Counted from the stretch's first letter, positions 3,923-43,135 are shown. The stretch is DNA of 64,000 nt from a virus (IMGVR_UViG_3300028920_001457:1-64000), one strand, 5' to 3'. A program made the numbers and translations. The notes: a model not told the origin generated them from the sequence alone.

Positions 3923-4556
3923 AATTTAAAAATATTCTTCTGTCATCAAAACCATTTTCTTTATATACAAAAATAGTAAATTCAAATGGCATATAATCAT
4001 TTCTTAGCACCACATTACGTGAATAGGTATACGCTATTGTTAGTATTGTTTCGGGCGAACTGTGAAAATGGTGTTTTATTTTCCATTCTACCTTATCTGA
4101 TAAGAAGTTAAAACAAACCCCCTCGTTACACATAGACAGGGCTTTTCTGAAATACTTATTAATAAGTCCGTACCCACCCTCGAAAACATTAAATATGCCC
4201 GATCCTATTATGATATCAAATTTTTCGTCTGTACCAAATGTCGTAAAATCAGCATTAATAAATCTTTTTTTGTATTTTTTTCTGGCAAGGTTTATCATAC
4301 CTGGCACTACGTCTATCCCCGTATACCTGCAATTTTTGTCCTCGACATAAGCGTTCAAGTCACCATAGCCGCATCCTATGTCAAGGATGTTTTTATTATT
4401 AAAATCAAATCCAGATAAAATAATTTCTTTTCTTATCTTATCTGCTCCGTGATTCCACCCAAGCGAGAGAATAGAATCACCATGTTTTTGTAAAAGCTCC
4501 GAATATCTGTCAAATGCTTCCATGGTTTTATCTGTTAATTTCACCCTTGTTATCAA
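3897..4556 (-). CDS. Class I SAM-dependent methyltransferase
   Basis: ILDIGCGYGD, YTGIDVV, DIIIGSGIFN; true start may be MEAF. Confidence 0.85.
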   Translation of the reverse strand: MITRVKLTDKTMEAFDRYSELLQKHGDSILSLGWNHGADKIRKEIILSGFDFNNKNILDIGCGYGDLNAYVEDKNCRYTGIDVVPGMINLARKKYKKRFINADFTTFGTDEKFDIIIGSGIFNVFEGGYGLINKYFRKALSMCNEGVCFNFLSDKVEWKIKHHFHSSPETILTIAYTYSRNVVLRNDYMPFEFTIFVYKENGFDDRRIFLNYESRNITK

Positions 4557-5139
4557 AGTTTTCTGTTATTGATACCCATACCTGATGGTCATTGATTAAT
4601 ACTTGGAAATCACCTTTTAAAGAATCAATAAACCATTGATTAAGTAACAAGCAGCCTGTTTTAAAGATGACTTCATTGCATGTTTCGGTATTTCTAAATA
4701 CTGCCTGTGCCAATATCATCCCCGCATCAATATCATTTGTAACGCGATGTAGTGTTGTACCTGTAAATCTCTCCCCCCGCTGTCGTCCTTCAGGCAGATA
4801 TTTTAGTCCGATAACGCCACGATAGGCGGGCAAGAGGGAATAATGAATATTGATAAACTCTATTGGTAATGATAAGACCTCGGGTTTTAATATTCTCCAG
4901 CATGTGGTAATAACCACATCGGGATTCATCCGATTTAGTGTTTTGATTAAATCCCCCTGCTCATTAAAATTCACCACAATATGGTCAATCGTCATCTTCC
5001 TTGCATATTCCACAGCCCCACATTCCCTATCGCCAATAACCCCGACAACTATTACGCCCAAATCATCCTGTCGGGCATGAACATGTTTTAATGTTCCACC
5101 CCCAGATGACACCAAAAAAACAACCCTTTTTATCATCAC
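4528..5139 (-). CDS. Formyltransferase (PurN/sugar N-formyltransferase fold)
   Basis: INIHYSLLPAYRG, TGTTLHRVTNDIDAGMIL. Confidence 0.85.
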   Translation of the reverse strand: MMIKRVVFLVSSGGGTLKHVHARQDDLGVIVVGVIGDRECGAVEYARKMTIDHIVVNFNEQGDLIKTLNRMNPDVVITTCWRILKPEVLSLPIEFINIHYSLLPAYRGVIGLKYLPEGRQRGERFTGTTLHRVTNDIDAGMILAQAVFRNTETCNEVIFKTGCLLLNQWFIDSLKGDFQVLINDHQVWVSITENFDNKGEINR

Positions 5140-6065
5140 ACATCAATATATTCACATGTTCCTGCCTGCCAGTCCACACAATTCCTACACATTTCCGGCA
5201 GGTTATTCCACATTTCTGATTGTTGTAATACCCTGTATAGCCTCATTCCTTTCCATGCTTCTTGGATTGTCTGTTTGTTAATATCCCCACATGGCACATC
5301 CGCATCCATATCATTGGCACAATAGGCGACAATACCCTTGTCGGTAATAGCCATAACCTGCATATTCCAATAACAGGGATAACGACTTGTGGGTGGGTGT
5401 TTCTGTTGTGGTAACTTATTAATCCAAGTAAGCATAGGGCGTATCTTGACGGTAACATCATAGTCAGACCAGAATTCTATGAAATCTTCCTTTTCCTGCC
5501 TGTTTCCGTTCATTTCTACAAATTGGATAAAAATATCAGGATGGGTTTTCCCCATTTCTTTTTTTAATTTTACCAGATACAAAATATTAGCGACAACCTT
5601 ATGATAGTCACCCCCAACACGATATTTCTTATATACATCCACCGATGCGGCGTCTACCCCGAAATAAATAGCATCCAAATCTGAATTTATTATATTACGT
5701 GCAGTAGCCTTATCCATCAAATTACCGTTCGAGTTTAATACCACATCTGTCAGTCCCTTGGATTTAGCATAACGAATCATTCTGAAAATATTATTATCAA
5801 GATTTATGTCTCTTATTATAAATGGTTCACCAAAGTATATTAACCAAACACGTATATCTTTATTTTTCATAGCCACCTCATCAATGATTTTTGTATAAAG
5901 TGACCAGGGCATAATACCTTTTTCTCGCTTCATATCTTTATGAAAACACATACTGCATTTAAAGTTACAATAGCTACATGTATCAATAAGCAAAACCCGC
6001 GGAAAATCACCGGGGTCTTCCCTACGTGAGCGTATCCATCCTTCCCTATCCTTGTTTATCTCCAT
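5136..6065 (-). CDS. Radical SAM protein with SPASM/Twitch domain
   Basis: CNFKCSMC (CxxxCxxC), GEPF, C-terminal PC...YC...CRNC. Confidence 0.9.
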   Translation of the reverse strand: MEINKDREGWIRSRREDPGDFPRVLLIDTCSYCNFKCSMCFHKDMKREKGIMPWSLYTKIIDEVAMKNKDIRVWLIYFGEPFIIRDINLDNNIFRMIRYAKSKGLTDVVLNSNGNLMDKATARNIINSDLDAIYFGVDAASVDVYKKYRVGGDYHKVVANILYLVKLKKEMGKTHPDIFIQFVEMNGNRQEKEDFIEFWSDYDVTVKIRPMLTWINKLPQQKHPPTSRYPCYWNMQVMAITDKGIVAYCANDMDADVPCGDINKQTIQEAWKGMRLYRVLQQSEMWNNLPEMCRNCVDWQAGTCEYIDV

Positions 6066-36400: not shown

Positions 36401-38155
36401 ATGAATACTTTAAGGTTATTCAATGCGGTAATCGCAAAAGAATCTACAGAAAAACCCTTCGTTTCAGAAGAGGGATTTATCATTGAATCAAATGCTCTTT
36501 GGGCAAAAAATAGGATATTGGAATTCTATCTCAAGGAAAAGTTAAGTGGTAACGATCTTAACAAAACATTTCACAAATCATGGGCTAAAATTAAAAACAG
36601 CTCTCGGTTTGAATTGTTTGTTGAGCAGATATTTCATTATATTTCTACATACGGAAGTGATTTTCAGGACGAAATATATATTCCCGATGAAGTATTAAAT
36701 GTACCTGACGTAAAGTTGTCATACAAGGTTGTCCGTGCATATTCCAAGGAGGAAATGACGGATAAGTGTTTATCACTATTAAAATCAGGTATAGCATTAA
36801 AGGAGGAAACAATTAATGAGGTGTTATCGGTGCTTGTTGAAGAACTGGATTATTCCTTTACGGGAAATGAGAAAATCAGAAACAAAGAGGCTGTTATAAA
36901 AATAGCAGATATTTATGGCGTTCTGCCCAATGACACCATGGAGTTTTTCAGATATATTATATATCGGGCTACGGGGCAGTCTCTTCTTATTAAGAGCAAT
37001 GATTTGATAATGAAAATTAAAGAAGGGAATTATAATCCGTCGGTTCAGTTTAATAAATTCGGATTAGAAAAATTGGCAACGATATTTAATCGTTTTAAGC
37101 CATTATTCTTGGCATTTAAACCCAAGTGCGGAAAAACGATCAATAAAATTGCGAAGTTGTCTAAAAAGTTTCATAAACCTCTCGTTGTCAACCCCCTTAA
37201 TACCGCAACAAGTGAGCTGATGGGGGATGATGATAGACATTGGTTGGATAATGCTACGCCGTACGCTTTATTTAAAGTATTATCGGCATGTTATACGAGA
37301 GCGAGCGGCCAAGAGTCTTTCGTTTATCGGATTAGAAACGGGAAATCCTGGGTCAAGGAAAAGGAAACTATTTTGAGGGTGAACAAGTTAAATTTTGATT
37401 TCATTATAAAGTATCTGAAAGAAAGATATGATTTATCAGAAAAGAAATTCTTTTTGCCTGCTGATATAAAATATGCCCTTCCTACATCAGAAAAAATGTT
37501 TGTTGGCAATATTCCCACAGGAACGAGATTTTATGGCAGGAAGTTGGCGGTTGGGATATATTGGGAGGACGCATGGGGGGCAAGAGACCTCGATCTTTCG
37601 GGGTTGACGCTTTCAGGGCATAAGGTTGGTTGGAATGCAGAATATGATTATGGCGAAGGACAATTAATGTATTCTGGCGATATTACATCCGCCCCCAATG
37701 GTGCGGTAGAGTACCTGTATGCCAACAAAGGGCTTCGGGAATCGGTTTTAATAAAAAACAATGTTTATTCGGGAAGTAATGAATGTGATTATAAAATCGT
37801 TATTGGGTTGGGGGATAAGATTTCTGTGGATTATATGATGAACCCAAATAATCTTTTTATAGAAGTCAAATGTAAGTCCGTACAAAAACAGACCATATTG
37901 GGGATTCTTACTCCAAAGAAAATGGGGCAGTGCTTTGTATTGCTTAATTTTGGGGCGGGACATGTAAGGGTGTCGGGCAACAGTAAGATATCTAATATCG
38001 CCCTTAAGTCACTATATGAACAATGGAACAAACCGTTTTCATTTAATAAATTGATTAAATTATTGGGGGCGCAGATTGTTGAAAACAAAGAGGATGCAGA
38101 TTATGATTTCTCGTCTGATAATTTAGAAAAAGATTCTTTTATTAAGATATTTTAA
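36401..38155 (+). CDS. Large helical protein with C-terminal TerD-like domain
   Basis: GIYW...RDLDLSG...YSGDITSAPNGAVEYL is TerD-like; N-terminal LNKTFHKSW...EQIFHYISTYG helical region. Confidence 0.6.
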   Translation: MNTLRLFNAVIAKESTEKPFVSEEGFIIESNALWAKNRILEFYLKEKLSGNDLNKTFHKSWAKIKNSSRFELFVEQIFHYISTYGSDFQDEIYIPDEVLNVPDVKLSYKVVRAYSKEEMTDKCLSLLKSGIALKEETINEVLSVLVEELDYSFTGNEKIRNKEAVIKIADIYGVLPNDTMEFFRYIIYRATGQSLLIKSNDLIMKIKEGNYNPSVQFNKFGLEKLATIFNRFKPLFLAFKPKCGKTINKIAKLSKKFHKPLVVNPLNTATSELMGDDDRHWLDNATPYALFKVLSACYTRASGQESFVYRIRNGKSWVKEKETILRVNKLNFDFIIKYLKERYDLSEKKFFLPADIKYALPTSEKMFVGNIPTGTRFYGRKLAVGIYWEDAWGARDLDLSGLTLSGHKVGWNAEYDYGEGQLMYSGDITSAPNGAVEYLYANKGLRESVLIKNNVYSGSNECDYKIVIGLGDKISVDYMMNPNNLFIEVKCKSVQKQTILGILTPKKMGQCFVLLNFGAGHVRVSGNSKISNIALKSLYEQWNKPFSFNKLIKLLGAQIVENKEDADYDFSSDNLEKDSFIKIF

Positions 38156-38156
38156 T

Positions 38157-38164
38157 TATCTTTG
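38157..38164 (+). promoter_or_regulatory. Bacteroidota-type -7 promoter element of tRNA operon 1
   Basis: TATCTTTG four nt before the leader ATG (leaderless-like). Confidence 0.65.
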
Positions 38165-38168
38165 CACC

Positions 38169-38231
38169 ATGATTAGAATACAGCATATAGAGCAACCGCA
38201 ACAGCCAAGAGCCGATATTGGGTCTGGATAG
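38169..38231 (+). CDS. Attenuator leader peptide 1 (MIRIQHIEQPQQPRADIGSG)
   Basis: Codons ATA,CAG,CAT,ATA,GAG,CAA,CCG,CAA,CAG,CCA match downstream Ile(TAT), Gln, His, Glu, Pro tRNAs. Confidence 0.85.
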   Translation: MIRIQHIEQPQQPRADIGSG

Positions 38232-38256
38232 GTGTTCTATGTGTTTATAATACAGA

Positions 38257-38287
38257 GCCTTCTGGACTATTTCAGAGGGCTTTTTTT
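38257..38287 (+). terminator. Attenuator terminator 1
   Basis: GCCTTCTGGA-CTAT-TTCAGAGGGC plus T7, just before the first tRNA. Confidence 0.85.
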
Positions 38288-38291
38288 ATTT

Positions 38292-38364
38292 CGGAAGTAT
38301 GGTGTAATCAGGTAGCATACGTGCCTTGGGCGCACGGGGAGTAGTTCGAATCTAATATTTCCGA
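38292..38364 (+). tRNA. tRNA-Pro(TGG)
   Basis: CGTGC-CTTGGGC-GCACG; acceptor CGGAAGT/ATTTCCG. Confidence 0.9.
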
Positions 38365-38370
38365 CAATAT

Positions 38371-38442
38371 TGGCACATAGGTTAATGGTAAGACCTCTCG
38401 GCTTATACCCCAGCAGTCCAAGTTCGATTCTTGGTGTGCCAA
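38371..38442 (+). tRNA. tRNA-Ile(TAT)
   Basis: Loop CTTATAC; acceptor TGGCACA/TGTGCCA; T loop TTCGATT. Confidence 0.8.
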
Positions 38443-38443
38443 C

Positions 38444-38518
38444 GGTGGTTATGGTGTAATGGCAACATAACTGTTTGTGGAGCAGTGGTTATCAGTTCGA
38501 GCCTGATTAATCACCCCA
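38444..38518 (+). tRNA. tRNA-His(GTG)
   Basis: G-1:C73, loop TTGTGGA, encoded CCA. Confidence 0.9.
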
Positions 38519-38519
38519 T

Positions 38520-38590
38520 GCTCGGTTCTTCTAACGGCAGGAAATCGGGTTTTCACCCCGGCAATAGCGGTTCAATTCCGCTACCGAGTA
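38520..38590 (+). tRNA. tRNA-Glu(TTC)
   Basis: TCGGG-TTTTCAC-CCCGG; T arm AGCGG-TTCAATT-CCGCT. Confidence 0.9.
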
Positions 38591-38596
38591 CGATAA

Positions 38597-38667
38597 TGCC
38601 TTGTGGTGTAATAGTAACACATAACACTTTGGATGTTATGTTTTCGGTGCGAATCCGAACAAGGCAT
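38597..38667 (+). tRNA. tRNA-Gln(TTG)
   Basis: TAACA-CTTTGGA-TGTTA; acceptor TGCCTTG/CAAGGCA. Confidence 0.9.
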
Positions 38668-38676
38668 CAAAATAAA

Positions 38677-38707
38677 TTTGGAAATTTAAAAATATGTATT
38701 ATCTTTG
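38677..38707 (+). promoter_or_regulatory. Bacteroidota-type promoter of tRNA operon 2
   Basis: TTTG (38677) then 19 nt then TATCTTTG (38700). Confidence 0.75.
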
Positions 38708-38726
38708 TACCAATAAAAAACAAAAA

Positions 38727-38801
38727 ATGCAGTTAGTCAGAAAGAATATGGTGAATATTGACCGCACAGGCGCAACCTTGCGAGGGGGTATTCCTATATG
38801 A
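38727..38801 (+). CDS. Attenuator leader peptide 2 (MQLVRKNMVNIDRTGATLRGGIPI)
   Basis: Core V-R-K-N-M-V-N-I-D-R-T-G-A-T covers all 10 amino acids of the 11 downstream tRNAs. Confidence 0.85.
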   Translation: MQLVRKNMVNIDRTGATLRGGIPI

Positions 38802-38822
38802 TTTCTGTAAGAAACAACAGGG

Positions 38823-38851
38823 ATGCCCTCAAGAGATTGGGGGCATTTTTT
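38823..38851 (+). terminator. Attenuator terminator 2
   Basis: ATGCCCTCAA-GAGA-TTGGGGGCAT plus T5. Confidence 0.85.
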
Positions 38852-38853
38852 AT

Positions 38854-38928: not shown

Positions 38929-39001
38929 AGCGGGTTGTGTAGAAATAGTATCTCGTCAGTCTCATAAGCTGAAGTTATGGGTGCAATCCCCATACCCGCT
39001 A
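38929..39001 (+). tRNA. tRNA-Met(CAT)
   Basis: TCAGT-CTCATAA-GCTGA; acceptor AGCGGGT/ACCCGCT. Confidence 0.85.
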
Positions 39002-39005
39002 CAAT

Positions 39006-39315: not shown

Positions 39316-39387
39316 GCAGGATAGGTGTTGATGGTTGCATAAGAGCCTTCCAAGCTCAAGGAGTGAATTCGAATTTCACATCCTGCT
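39316..39387 (+). tRNA. tRNA-Gly(TCC)
   Basis: Loop CTTCCAA; acceptor GCAGGAT/ATCCTGC; U73. Confidence 0.9.
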
Positions 39388-39391
39388 CAAT

Positions 39392-39468: not shown

Positions 39469-39540
39469 GACCCTATAATTTCAACAGTAGAATCCCATCC
39501 TTTTAAGATGGTTGTCTTGGGGCGGAACCAAGTGGGGTCA
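39469..39540 (+). tRNA. tRNA-Lys(TTT)
   Basis: CCATC-CTTTTAA-GATGG; atypical T loop GGCGGAA. Confidence 0.8.
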
Positions 39541-39544
39541 CAAA

Positions 39545-39712: not shown

Positions 39713-39743
39713 TTTGTTTATTTAAAAATTATTATTAATTTTG
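39713..39743 (+). promoter_or_regulatory. Bacteroidota-type promoter of tRNA operon 3
   Basis: TTTG (39713) then 19 nt then TAATTTTG (39736). Confidence 0.75.
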
Positions 39744-39749
39744 CAGATT

Positions 39750-39812
39750 ATGAAAAATCTATGGTGTTCATATAGTTTATTTTCACTCTTGCTCTTGAGG
39801 CGAGGCGGATAA
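39750..39812 (+). CDS. Attenuator leader peptide 3 (MKNLWCSYSLFSLLLLRRGG)
   Basis: CTA,TGG,TGT,TCA,TAT,AGT,TTA,TTT,TCA,CTC,TTG: at least one codon for each of the 9 downstream tRNAs. Confidence 0.9.
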   Translation: MKNLWCSYSLFSLLLLRRGG

Positions 39813-39838
39813 ACTATATCTACCAAAGATATATTGAA

Positions 39839-39864
39839 GCCTCGCTTATAAAGCGGGGTTTTTT
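39839..39864 (+). terminator. Attenuator terminator 3
   Basis: GCCTCGCTT-ATA-AAGCGGGGT plus T5. Confidence 0.85.
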
Positions 39865-39869
39865 GTTAT

Positions 39870-40099: not shown

Positions 40100-40191
40100 G
40101 GATGGCTAAACCACAGTAGGTCTAAGTGGGACGGTCTTGAAAACCGTAGGTCGCTCAACACGGCGTGTAAGTTCGAGTCTTACGCCATCCG
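40100..40191 (+). tRNA. tRNA-Ser(TGA)
   Basis: ACGGT-CTTGAAA-ACCGT; long variable arm; G73. Confidence 0.9.
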
Positions 40192-40195
40192 CGAA

Positions 40196-40278: not shown

Positions 40279-40279
40279 A

Positions 40280-40362
40280 GGAGAGTAAATCATCAAGGCG
40301 ATGACTACGCCCGCTAAGCGATAGGTTCTGAAAGGAATGGGACTCGGGTTCTCTGCTCTCCG
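40280..40362 (+). tRNA. tRNA-Ser(GCT), divergent
   Basis: Acceptor GGAGAGT/GCTCTCC, loop CCGCTAA (C33), long variable arm, weak T arm. Confidence 0.65.
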
Positions 40363-40367
40363 CAAAC

Positions 40368-40437
40368 AGGGATACCCATTGGAGTGGTAAGCGGTCTCCA
40401 AAACCGTGATTTGAATGTTCGACCCGTTCTATCCCTG
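40368..40437 (+). tRNA. tRNA-Trp(CCA)
   Basis: GCGGT-CTCCAAA-ACCGT; G73. Confidence 0.85.
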
Positions 40438-40441
40438 CTAT

Positions 40442-40518: not shown

Positions 40519-40519
40519 A

Positions 40520-40586
40520 GACCCAATAAAAGCACAAAACGTGGTTTGCAAAACCATGGGGGACGGTGCGATTCCGTCTTGGGTCT
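40520..40586 (+). tRNA. tRNA-Cys(GCA), D-arm reduced
   Basis: GTGGT-TTGCAAA-ACCAT; U73; D region is an unpaired A-rich 14-mer. Confidence 0.75.
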
Positions 40587-40624
40587 CTAATATATTTCTT
40601 ACCTTTGCATAAAACAAGAATAGT

Positions 40625-43135
40625 ATGGGCAAGAAACAACCGCCAAAGGCAGAAAAGAAACTTTCCTTTGAAACAGACTTTGAGTTACAGGAAGAAACCC
40701 GCCTAAAGCTACGTCCCGAAGATATAGTAAAGATAAAAGAGGAAGCAGGCAAACTACCCGATGACTTTAATCCTTATGGGAACTATATGCCCGAAAAACT
40801 CAGATTTCTGGGCGACGAACCACCCCCAAACACCAAAAGATTTGTTGGAATAAATGTGGATGATGATGATCTGACACCGATTTATGTAAGCACACCCGCC
40901 CCCCCGCCGAAAGAATTAATAGATTATCACGACCTACCACCCACAGAACAATATTGGCGGCGTATGGAAGTACCCAAACGACTGCATAAATTAGAAGAGA
41001 GAGCCTTCCTTGCGCTATTTGAGGTAGAAAGAAGAAACAGGCAGGAAACAGTACAGGGCTATAGGATTTATCAGAAATATTGGGAAATATTAGAAGCAGA
41101 ACAGGATAAATATGCGGAAGAGATAGCATGGATAAAAAAGATGTGGTGGTACAGGACTAACGGCTATTGGTTCTATAATGATGGCGAACCCGCCTATTGT
41201 ACTGGTGAATATTTTGATTATCTTAACTTTTGGTATATAAAGGATGGTGAGACACATGTGGAATTCAGGGAAGAGGATCGGGTTATTTCTATTTTTTCAC
41301 ATTATCTAAGAACAACAACCGAGTCTTTCGCCAACATAAACCCCACCACGGGTAGGGCAATGAAAAATAAAGATGGCAAGTATGATATGGTGGATGTCGG
41401 TGCAAGAGTATTTTTCGGTGACATGAAACCGAAATTCAGGAGGTGTGGGGAAACGCAATGGGCGTGTCACGGGATATGGCTTGGTGCGAGTACGACACCC
41501 GCCGCTTATGGTACTATCATATCCATGGATGGTGAAAACGCACAAAAGCACTATTACAAAAAGCTAATACCCGCATGGAATAAATATCCTATGTTTCTCA
41601 AGCCAATATGGATGGGTACGAAACGTCCCACAAATATTAAGTTGATAGAACCACCCAATGTATTTAATCCCAATATGGAGGGATTGGGTTCTAATATTGA
41701 TTATACAGAAAGCTCCGGGGTGTCGAAGAATGATGGTGATACATTACATTTTTGTCTCTCAGACGAGGAGGGAAAAAGTAAGTCACCTATAGCCGAAAGG
41801 TGGAGTGTAAATAAGATAGCTATGTCAACGGGTGGTGGGTCTAACATCCTTAATAACGCTTATGCGTGGCATCCGAGTACCGTTGAGGATATTGGTGACG
41901 GTGCGCCAGAGTATTTTAAAATGTGGCAACTATCTAATTTTTATGAAAGGATACCCATACTTGGGCAGACACACTCGGGGTTGGCAAGGATTTTCATTCC
42001 CGCATATAAGAAACTCGAGGGTTTTATTGACAGGTGGGGTAAGTCGGTATCGGATACACCAACGAAACGACAGATAAAATACAGTCCACGAGCCAAATTT
42101 GCACTCACGGGCAAGGGTGCAAGGGAAACACTACAGGCAGTTCTTGATTCCTTGTTAGCCAAGGGGACACCCGAGGCACTTGAGGCATACAGGTCAAGGC
42201 GCAGAAAGTTCCCGATGAAGTCGGCAGATGCATGGTTGGGGAGTTCGGGTAATGTGGGTTTCAACCTTGAGATAATAGACAAGCGTATAGAGGAACTCAA
42301 TAGGATAAAGTCTTTTGGCAAGATGAATTATAAAACCGGGTATTTTTACAGGGAAAACAATCATCCACAGGGCGATGTGTTGTGGCGTACAGACCTCGAC
42401 AACCCCAAGTTTATCATGTCCAAGGACTTACCACAGGAATTAACCAACAGAAGGAGTGTGGTCGACTTTTACGATGGTCTCAGGCAACAGTGGAAGAAAT
42501 CATGGACACCAGTAGACGGATATAAATTCACCCTTGGGGTGGATATGTTCAGAAATCTATCGCCCGTAGAGGCAAAACAGGCATCTAAATTTGGGGGATT
42601 TACCAATAACTCCCGCCAGAGTAATGGTGGTATAGCTATTCTATGGGAATATGATTCAGAATATCCCGATAGTGGCAGGTGTGTATTGTCGTATAATTAT
42701 CGTCCATCGACACAAAAAGAGTTTATGGATGATGTTCTTATGGCGGCACAGTATTTCGGGGCAATGATATATCCCGAACAAAACGTAGAGCGGTTTATTG
42801 AGTATATGTTTGATGAGGGCTATGGCGGGTATGGGCTTTATGATATTGATTTGGTAACTGGTAATATAAAGAAACTACCAGGGCGATATACTACAAAAGA
42901 AAGCCTGCAAGAGATGTTCAGGGAATATAAGGACTATATAGAACGTAAGGGTGCGGAAGAAGAACACGATGATTTGCTAATGCAGATGAAAAACATACGT
43001 GGGGTAGAAGATGCTACACGTAATGACCTTTTCGTTGCTTTCGGTATGTGTCTTCTTGGAAGTAAGTCCCGTGTCAGGGAAATTATAAAGCGTGAAGACT
43101 TTGGTGAGGCAATAGCAATAGACGATATTTTTTAA
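40625..43135 (+). CDS. Terminase large subunit (crAss-like)
   Basis: Walker A-like KPKFRRCGET, Walker B-like LSDEEGK, nuclease LGVD, E.NV and D..VAFG motifs; sits before portal. Confidence 0.85.
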   Translation: MGKKQPPKAEKKLSFETDFELQEETRLKLRPEDIVKIKEEAGKLPDDFNPYGNYMPEKLRFLGDEPPPNTKRFVGINVDDDDLTPIYVSTPAPPPKELIDYHDLPPTEQYWRRMEVPKRLHKLEERAFLALFEVERRNRQETVQGYRIYQKYWEILEAEQDKYAEEIAWIKKMWWYRTNGYWFYNDGEPAYCTGEYFDYLNFWYIKDGETHVEFREEDRVISIFSHYLRTTTESFANINPTTGRAMKNKDGKYDMVDVGARVFFGDMKPKFRRCGETQWACHGIWLGASTTPAAYGTIISMDGENAQKHYYKKLIPAWNKYPMFLKPIWMGTKRPTNIKLIEPPNVFNPNMEGLGSNIDYTESSGVSKNDGDTLHFCLSDEEGKSKSPIAERWSVNKIAMSTGGGSNILNNAYAWHPSTVEDIGDGAPEYFKMWQLSNFYERIPILGQTHSGLARIFIPAYKKLEGFIDRWGKSVSDTPTKRQIKYSPRAKFALTGKGARETLQAVLDSLLAKGTPEALEAYRSRRRKFPMKSADAWLGSSGNVGFNLEIIDKRIEELNRIKSFGKMNYKTGYFYRENNHPQGDVLWRTDLDNPKFIMSKDLPQELTNRRSVVDFYDGLRQQWKKSWTPVDGYKFTLGVDMFRNLSPVEAKQASKFGGFTNNSRQSNGGIAILWEYDSEYPDSGRCVLSYNYRPSTQKEFMDDVLMAAQYFGAMIYPEQNVERFIEYMFDEGYGGYGLYDIDLVTGNIKKLPGRYTTKESLQEMFREYKDYIERKGAEEEHDDLLMQMKNIRGVEDATRNDLFVAFGMCLLGSKSRVREIIKREDFGEAIAIDDIF

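Follow-up and report, generated by a model that had tools for sequence, protein, structure and literature searches.

The 64,000-nucleotide (nt) stretch of DNA analyzed here (IMGVR_UViG_3300028920_001457:1-64000, in the following the window) comes from a virus record of 77 kb in IMG/VR and belongs to an uncultured phage. It contains an array of transfer RNA (tRNA) genes, and we found that the short leader in front of the first five of them is probably a ribosome-mediated transcription attenuator, gating a phage tRNA operon whose tRNAs read the regulatory codons of the leader itself. The mechanism would very probably be of the trp type, with an OR logic over five tRNA species and a negative feedback of the operon on its own products, and the five tRNAs would probably be made only when ribosomes decode their codons slowly. 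A preliminary description of the region had already read it as an attenuator with a codon sensor, a switch and a start that suggests leaderless translation; codon statistics, conservation, constrained folds and promoter geometry support this reading within the limits of computation.

The array sits between a gene for a 584-amino-acid (aa) protein (function not assigned, 36401-38155) and the large terminase gene (40625-43135); structural genes are also present in the window. It is split into three units with the same internal order: a TAnnTTTG box, a short open reading frame (ORF), a hairpin with T-run and the tRNA genes, which start no more than about 10 nt past the hairpin/T-run in each of the three units. 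Jointly, the units cover all 20 amino acids. The elements of unit 1 are the following, those of the leader being listed with the evidence on which they rest (MFE, minimum free energy):

38157-38164, + strand: -7 promoter box TATCTTTG (Bacteroidota sigma-A type), motif match
38169-38231, + strand: leader ORF 1, 20 codons and TAG, peptide MIRIQHIEQPQQPRADIGSG, from the sequence
38178-38207, + strand: sensor run, codons 4-13, ten codons in succession, all read by the five downstream tRNAs
38182-38194, + strand: region 1, sensor codons, 5' strand of helix 1:2, MFE folds
38222-38233, + strand: antiterminator 5' strand (last sense codons and stop codon), constrained folds
38233-38245, + strand: region 2, 3' strand of helix 1:2, just past the stop codon, MFE folds
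38254-38291, + strand: intrinsic terminator, 13-pair stem (38254-38266 with 38271-38283) and T-run, best-scoring terminator-like site of the region
38257-38267, + strand: antiterminator 3' strand, identical with the terminator 5' arm, constrained folds
38292-38365, + strand: tRNA-Pro (TGG), ARAGORN and Rfam
38371-38443, + strand: tRNA-Ile (TAT), reads ATA, ARAGORN and Rfam
38445-38518, + strand: tRNA-His (GTG), ARAGORN and Rfam
38520-38591, + strand: tRNA-Glu (TTC), ARAGORN and Rfam
38597-38668, + strand: tRNA-Gln (TTG), ARAGORN and Rfam

The leader ORF begins with the ATG at 38169 and ends with the TAG at 38229-38231. Its codons 4-13 are ATA CAG CAT ATA GAG CAA CCG CAA CAG CCA (Ile, Gln, His, Ile, Glu, Gln, Pro, Gln, Gln, Pro), identical to the ten-codon run for Ile(ATA)/Gln/His/Glu/Pro reported in the preliminary description. 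As background we used the codon usage of 30 long phage ORFs (11,434 codons), in which codons readable by the unit-1 tRNAs account for 19%. The probability of a run of 10 such codons within 19 is P ~ 7e-7, and a run of this length was absent from 200,000 windows drawn at random from phage genes. The six frames of the window contain 599 ORFs of 12-40 codons that begin with ATG; of these only leader 1 has a unit-1 run of at least 6 codons, and the same scan with the codon sets of units 2 and 3 returned exactly two other ORFs, each of them preceding its own unit. A matrix of leaders against units has its matches almost entirely on the diagonal: the runs of own-unit codons are 10, 14 and 13 long, and leaders 2 and 3 have hardly any codons of the other units. 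The match extends to the level of isoacceptors: ATA in leader 1 goes with tRNA-Ile(UAU) and ATT in leader 2 with tRNA-Ile(GAU), while AGA and CGC (CGY) in leader 2 go with Arg-TCT and Arg-ACG. Of the Ile codons of the phage 55% are ATA, which amounts to 3.9% of all its codons (same 30 ORFs; GC content of the phage 38%), hence the demand for tRNA-Ile(UAU) is real. Leader 1 is a short, presumably translated ORF between promoter and regulated genes, and its regulatory codons are concentrated and matched to these genes.

The terminator hairpin has an energy of -17 kcal/mol. Since the terminator ends 1 nt ahead of tRNA-Pro there is no space for a further promoter; what separates the ORF from the regulated genes is an intrinsic terminator that no promoter follows. 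The preliminary description had proposed that the segment spanning the stop codon can pair with the 5' arm of this terminator. The pairing exists, the duplex of 38221-38238 with 38254-38268 having an energy of -13.6 kcal/mol; in constrained folds 38222-38228 and 38230-38233 pair with 38257-38267, and this antiterminator and the terminator are mutually exclusive. We noticed a third element that had been missed before: in ribosome-free RNA, region 1 pairs with region 2. With this helix 1:2 the trp-like scheme is complete (helices 1:2, 2:3 and 3:4). The free leader RNA has a z-score of -5.4 against shuffles and folds into a long 5' hairpin, formed by region 1 and region 2 with an inner hairpin holding 38219-38227, followed by the terminator.

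The dependence of these structures on the position of a ribosome was assessed by folding. An equilibrium fold of the full leader with a ribosome mask gave a terminator probability of 0.95 at all positions and did not discriminate between them; it was therefore replaced by folding the RNA that is present before the terminator 3' arm has been made. In this model of the decision moment the RNA was folded up to the terminator 5' arm and the ribosome footprint was made unpairable. With the A-site at codons 4-14 the probability of the antiterminator is 0.85-0.92. It is only 0.1-0.3 once the A-site has reached codon 15 or any later position up to and including the stop, and equally low with no ribosome. 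Varying how far the footprint extends past the A-site codon, from 6 to 14 nt, did not move the permissive positions off the sensor run. Folding with and without a ribosome footprint, which had been named as a check on the switch, hence gives an antiterminator that depends on ribosome position, and the expectation that a ribosome at the stop hides the antiterminator also held, the strand being covered from codon 15 to the stop. In silico, the antiterminator can form when the ribosome stalls at the regulatory codons, but not when it has come to the end of the ORF. In a control with 150 dinucleotide shuffles of the upstream RNA the antiterminator probability was 0.46 +/- 0.21 in comparison to 0.88 for the natural sequence, which none of the shuffles reached. 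The same profile of ribosome positions was obtained for 16 of 16 leaders from three families and up to seven genomes.

Relatives of the window were found by scans with the terminase and with leader motifs. The three-unit array is also present in the complete viral contigs G006 (L037) and G007 (L038) and, with all three units, in the metagenome contig L020; L018, L025 and L039 carry partial copies, and L032/L035 is a deletion derivative. The leader 1 peptides of the relatives are:

L020: leader 1 peptide MIRNQHIEQPINLLRW
L037: leader 1 peptide MIRIQHIEQPIDLLTG
L038: leader 1 peptide MRMNQHIEQPINLLGG
L032: leader 1 peptide MIRIQHIEQPISLLTG

All five genomes share an invariant peptide core, Gln-His-Ile(ATA)-Glu-Gln-Pro, which names all five tRNAs. 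At the level of codons this core is CAR CAT ATA GAG CAR CCN, and its three variable sites are all synonymous third positions (CAG/CAA, CAA/CAG and CCG/CCA/CCT). The amino acids encoded by the flanking codons vary freely. Helix 1:2 is preserved in the relatives as CATATAGAG with CTCTATAT, and a synonymous change from CAA to CAG is matched on the opposite strand of this helix (A:T / G:C / G:T). The 3' half of the leader (38208-38283), comprising the last codons, region 2 and both terminator arms, is wholly unlike that of the relatives: the window has QQPRADIGSG, its own region 2 and the AGAGCCTTCTGG terminator, whereas all relatives have I-x-L-L-x-G, GGGGTGAGG and the CCCTCCCC terminator. The logic of three helices is nevertheless retained, and the difference amounts to a natural module swap. 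Fragment contigs from four salt-marsh DNA runs contained one extra variant leader, ending in QHIEQPPILLSG and a stop codon and read from the loose end at 38199; this variant carries the relatives' version of the 3' half.

Units 2 and 3 of the array are preceded by sister attenuators with the following elements:

38700-38853, + strand: sister attenuator 2, with -7 box at 38700-38707 and leader ORF at 38727-38801, peptide MQLVRKNMVNIDRTGATLRGGIPI
38784-38795 with 38819-38830: antiterminator of attenuator 2; terminator at 38822-38847
39736-39869, + strand: sister attenuator 3, with -7 box at 39736-39743 and leader ORF at 39750-39812, peptide MKNLWCSYSLFSLLLLRRGG
39800-39806 with 39839-39845: antiterminator of attenuator 3; terminator at 39836-39862

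Unit 2 comprises eleven tRNAs (Ile-GAT, Met, Asn, Arg-TCT, Asp, Ala, Gly, Arg-ACG, Lys, Thr and Val), and 14 codons in succession in its leader are own-unit codons. Across 5 genomes, 90% of the cells in the 12-bp antiterminator of leader 2 are paired, with changes from wobble to Watson-Crick pairs among them. Unit 3 encodes three tRNAs for Leu and one each for Ser, Tyr, Trp and Phe, to which Ser-GCT and Cys can be added by eye; the run of 13 own-unit codons in its leader has a probability of P ~ 1.6e-7. Its 7-bp antiterminator is 100% paired in seven of seven genomes, with a compensatory pair that is CG in 4, UA in 2 and UG in 1 of them, and a UA/CG swap is found in its helix 1:2. In both leaders the residues are permuted among genomes while the set belonging to the unit is kept (WC/CW; SLFS/SSFL/SFSL; VRK/AKT/IKR/TRK). 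A permuted order with a conserved set is as expected from selection on a list of codons and not on a peptide. Leader 3 (39772-39866) gave sub-threshold Rfam matches to Trp_leader (30 bits with a gathering threshold of 41, E = 0.002) and Phe_leader, a resemblance of form only.

The -7 box of unit 1 directly abuts the stop codon of the upstream 584-aa gene. The ATG of the leader follows it after a spacer of only 4 nt (cacc), as noted in the preliminary description. The box is conserved in four relatives, with a spacer to the ATG of 4 nt in three and 5 nt in one of them. In contrast, other, longer ORFs located behind promoter-like motifs in the window have spacers of 15-42 nt, with one exception. 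In flavobacteria the sigma-A box TAnnTTTG occupies positions -12 to -5, leaderless mRNAs account for 5.5% and leader-peptide attenuation has been inferred (PMC9723704); in B. thetaiotaomicron 3.7% of the 5' untranslated regions are shorter than 10 nt (PMC7366714). If the box takes the flavobacterial position here, the predicted +1 falls on the A of the ATG, 38169 in the window, and likewise in three of the four relatives. The MFE fold contains no pairs within the first 13 nt of the leader. From this promoter geometry it appears somewhat more probable than otherwise that the mRNA of leader 1 is leaderless or has a 1-nt leader.

From the computed features, namely the ORF, the codon match with its significance, the conservation and the alternative structures, which depend on where the ribosome stands, we infer promoter use, transcription start, translation, termination, read-through and the physiological trigger as follows. 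Transcription would begin at 38169, the A of the ATG, or right beside it, and the leaderless 5' end would take up a ribosome. When aminoacyl-tRNAs for Ile(ATA), Gln, His, Glu and Pro are ample, the ribosome should reach codons 15-20 or the stop before the polymerase completes the terminator; by covering 38222-38233 it would let the terminator form, and transcription would stop 1 nt before tRNA-Pro. When any of the five tRNAs is scarce, the ribosome would stall within codons 4-13 and open helix 1:2. Positions 38222-38233 would then be free to pair with the emerging terminator 5' arm and the polymerase would read into the five tRNA genes. The newly made tRNAs would speed up translation of the leader and shut the operon again, resulting in a negative feedback with OR logic on the tRNA pool. 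Units 2 and 3 are expected to operate likewise for their own tRNAs.

Several observations weigh against this interpretation. Promoter, transcription start and translation are predicted from motifs. His and Glu are each represented by one codon in the run of leader 1. Covariation for unit 1 is thin, as there are five leader sequences of which four are close to one another. The derivative L032/L035 retains a QHIEQP leader in front of a remnant array of Pro, Trp, Phe and Cys only, a mismatch of leader and tRNAs that looks like a deletion. More distant relatives have tRNA arrays or lone tRNAs without a leader. Finally, the equilibrium always favors the terminator, even with a stalled ribosome (-27.1 in comparison to -17.0 kcal/mol); the switch must therefore be kinetic. 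The trp attenuator is a kinetic switch as well, its terminator being more stable than its antiterminator.

A second way to understand the same device is that its natural input is amino-acid starvation or the charging state of the host, the tRNA supply being raised whenever translation slows. A stalled ribosome cannot distinguish a missing from an uncharged tRNA, which is established for the his, trp and ilv attenuators, and the structure and codon data suit both inputs equally. Extra tRNA would not relieve amino-acid starvation, however, leaving little gain for the phage, and the match of isoacceptors (ATA versus ATT, AGA versus CGC) points to tRNA species rather than amino acids, as may the gene of the tRNA repair ligase RtcB within the array of L018. 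We therefore regard starvation as a rather unlikely input. It is highly improbable that the short ORFs encode peptides that act in their own right on targets such as the ribosome or tRNA enzymes, with the hairpin ending their mRNA and the tRNAs arising from read-through or another start. Conservation of the Q-H-I-E-Q-P core at the amino-acid level would fit such peptides, and peTrpL is a known precedent for a trans-acting leader peptide (PMC7298713). But the permuted residues of leaders 2 and 3 with their constant set fit a checklist of codons and not a peptide that folds or binds, leader 1 has an entirely different C-terminal half in the window and in its relatives, and the composition of three unrelated peptides would in each case have to coincide exactly with the amino acids of the tRNA block that follows. 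The hairpin at 38254-38283 is also located about 100 nt past the stop codon of the 584-aa gene and could be the terminator of that gene or an element for processing or stability, which would make the ORF an untranslated coincidence. This we consider extremely improbable: a conserved -7 box separates the gene from the hairpin, the unit of promoter, ORF and terminator recurs twice within the array without a preceding protein gene, and the codon statistics, the exclusively synonymous variation and the dependence on ribosome position would all need to be accidents.

The attenuators of biosynthetic operons are the closest structural counterparts of the phage leader. The thr leader senses Thr and Ile, and the ilvGMEDA leader Ile, Leu and Val. 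Like these multivalent enterobacterial leaders and like trp, the phage leader has a short ORF whose regulatory codons stand for several amino acids, together with an intrinsic terminator that an antiterminator overlaps. In all of them a 1:2 helix sequesters the antiterminator as long as no ribosome is present, termination follows when the ribosome reaches the stop and read-through when it stalls (predicted for the phage), and the terminator is the more stable structure. Unlike them, the leader described here is phage-borne and the regulated genes are tRNA genes instead of genes for biosynthetic enzymes, so that the sensed molecules would be the operon's own products and the feedback direct. 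In a further difference, a phage leader samples up to 11 tRNA species with one to four codons each, which makes it the most multivalent leader known to us. A search of 38169-38291 against Rfam (cmscan, E <= 1) gave no match, including to His_leader, Trp_leader, Thr_leader, Leu_leader and Phe_leader, and with tRNAs as regulated genes the leader falls outside these classical amino-acid operon families. There was also no match to the T-box (RF00230) at E <= 1, and the architecture depends on an ORF and is not that of a T-box. T-boxes likewise couple the state of a specific tRNA to terminator read-through through an antiterminator, but they bind uncharged tRNA directly, without ribosome or ORF, and control aminoacyl-tRNA synthetase and amino-acid genes. 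All structural features tested for a ribosome-mediated attenuator were found in the phage leader, and by these features we assign it to this class.

Leaderless short ORFs with poly-cysteine stretches are reported to act as cysteine-responsive attenuators in mycobacteria (bioRxiv 10.1101/834739). As is predicted for the phage, the regulatory ORF is at the 5' end of the transcript and the ribosome loads without a 5' untranslated region; the mycobacterial ORFs differ in belonging to another phylum, in responding to a single amino acid and in preceding protein-coding operons. The nearest published case of control of a tRNA array is the 26-gene trn array of Anabaena PCC 7120, which is silent and becomes induced under translational stress (PMC8421152, PMC10272220). 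It resembles what we propose for the phage in being a surplus set of tRNA genes that is normally silent and expressed once translation is compromised, and rtcB is linked to it as it is to the array in the sister phage locus L018. In Anabaena, however, a protein repressor, TrcR, binds direct repeats at the promoter, and no attenuator, leader peptide or terminator is mentioned for this array in the two reports. In searches of the literature on attenuation or leader peptides together with tRNA operons, tRNA arrays or phage tRNAs we did not find such control of tRNA genes described. In comparison to the described attenuators that we know of or found, the target, a tRNA operon sensing its own products, would be new.

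The number of tRNA genes in the array is 18 with ARAGORN at default settings and 23 at a relaxed threshold, most of them being supported by Rfam. The five gained at the relaxed threshold are Met-CAT, Gly-TCC, Lys-TTT, Ser-TGA and Trp-CCA. Two further genes were recognized by eye:

38929-39002, 39316-39388, 39469-39541, 40100-40192 and 40368-40438: tRNAs seen only with relaxed ARAGORN
40279-40366 and 40519-40590: tRNA-like genes by eye, Ser-GCT-like and Cys-GCA-like

In both tRNA-like genes the acceptor, anticodon and T arms are clear and the D arm is degenerate; ARAGORN misses them at every threshold. Counting these two, the array would total 25 tRNAs for all 20 amino acids. Under the wobble rules applied, CGG is the sole codon that the tRNAs of the array cannot read. 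The Ser-GCT-like element (ggagagtaaatcat...ctgctaagg...gttctgaaaggaat...gctctccgc) recurs at 2809-2901 of the crAss-like phage cr111_1 (L041, MT774387.1), a phage unrelated to the window, where it lies in an unannotated gap between tRNA-Asp and tRNA-Pro. By this recurrence it may be a conserved non-canonical tRNA. The tRNA array of cr111_1 also contains a promoter and a 13-codon ORF ahead of tRNA-Gln, for which a terminator or a codon match is not clear.

The arrays of the relatives differ in content. In L018 leader 1 is lost to the contig end, and a tRNA with the anticodon CAT (162-234) takes the place that tRNA-Ile(TAT) has in unit 1; it could be a Met tRNA or, as a lysidine-type Ile2, still read ATA. 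Between units 1 and 2 the same contig carries the RtcB tRNA-splicing/repair ligase gene (519-1688; Pfam PF01139, E = 5.6e-115), which has its own TTTG/TATCTTTG promoter. The surroundings of the array in the window yielded no gene for tRNA repair or for an RNA ligase, and RtcB was not found in its 77-kb record. Insertions between tRNAs of units 2 and 3 differ among relatives (L038 1994-2413, L037 2449-2878, L025 272-1025); a 139-aa ORF in the insertion of L038 has no Pfam match. In L032, leader 1 and its terminator, Pro and Trp calls, Phe, Cys and the terminase promoter follow each other within 4300-5257 on the - strand, with about 2 kb of the array missing. The Pro and Trp calls overlap by 19 nt and therefore probably represent a fused or broken tRNA. 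Scans of the viral contigs with the terminase and the 584-aa protein returned distant relatives in which the attenuators are not present. The nearest terminase relative by identity (L022, 82%) has no array; by eye, and not as an ARAGORN call, one Ala-like (TGC) tRNA-like sequence (2270-2345) lies immediately ahead of its terminase promoter. With L022 lacking it, the array behaves as a gain-and-loss cassette at a site proximal to the terminase.

Searches in wider collections gave no further members. A scan of the GenBank phage collection returned generic tRNA matches only. Three degenerate leader patterns run against the viral contigs found no genomes beyond those already known, and one earlier leader-2 pattern found none. 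Five matches of a 17-mer core were located inside protein genes and are attributed to chance. In bacterial genomes the leader-1 pattern matched 6 times, with about 4 matches expected by chance: one, in a Bacteroidales metagenome-assembled genome, forms the beginning of a longer ORF (MKTNQHIEQPEDQ...); no tRNA gene lies near the remaining five. The leader-3 pattern had no match in bacterial genomes.

The purpose of phage tRNA genes has been debated for more than 50 years, the two views being codon compensation and the replacement of tRNAs destroyed by host defences. To our knowledge their regulation has hardly been addressed. A leader that lists the codons of its own tRNAs reveals what the phage monitors, the decoding speed of each codon, and the question of what phage tRNAs are for becomes testable with simple reporters and defined tRNA pools. 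If the proposed attenuation is true, it would extend trp-type attenuation to a new class of targets, RNA genes that feed back on their own sensor, and would provide synthetic biology with a compact and portable sensor of the availability of individual tRNAs. It is possible, although we put this forward only tentatively, that the three attenuators, which between them sample all 20 amino acids, act jointly as a circuit surveying the entire tRNA pool: the near-complete tRNA set would stay silent, and a block of it would be switched on only after loss of the matching host tRNAs. The trigger could conceivably be, for example, anticodon nucleases, other tRNA-cleaving anti-phage defences or host shut-off. 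Such a circuit fits the RtcB ligase gene inside the L018 array as well as published cases in which phage tRNAs overcome tRNA-targeting defences (PMC10264068, PMC11555353). If this holds, the array would represent an inducible and self-limiting counter-defence of the phage.

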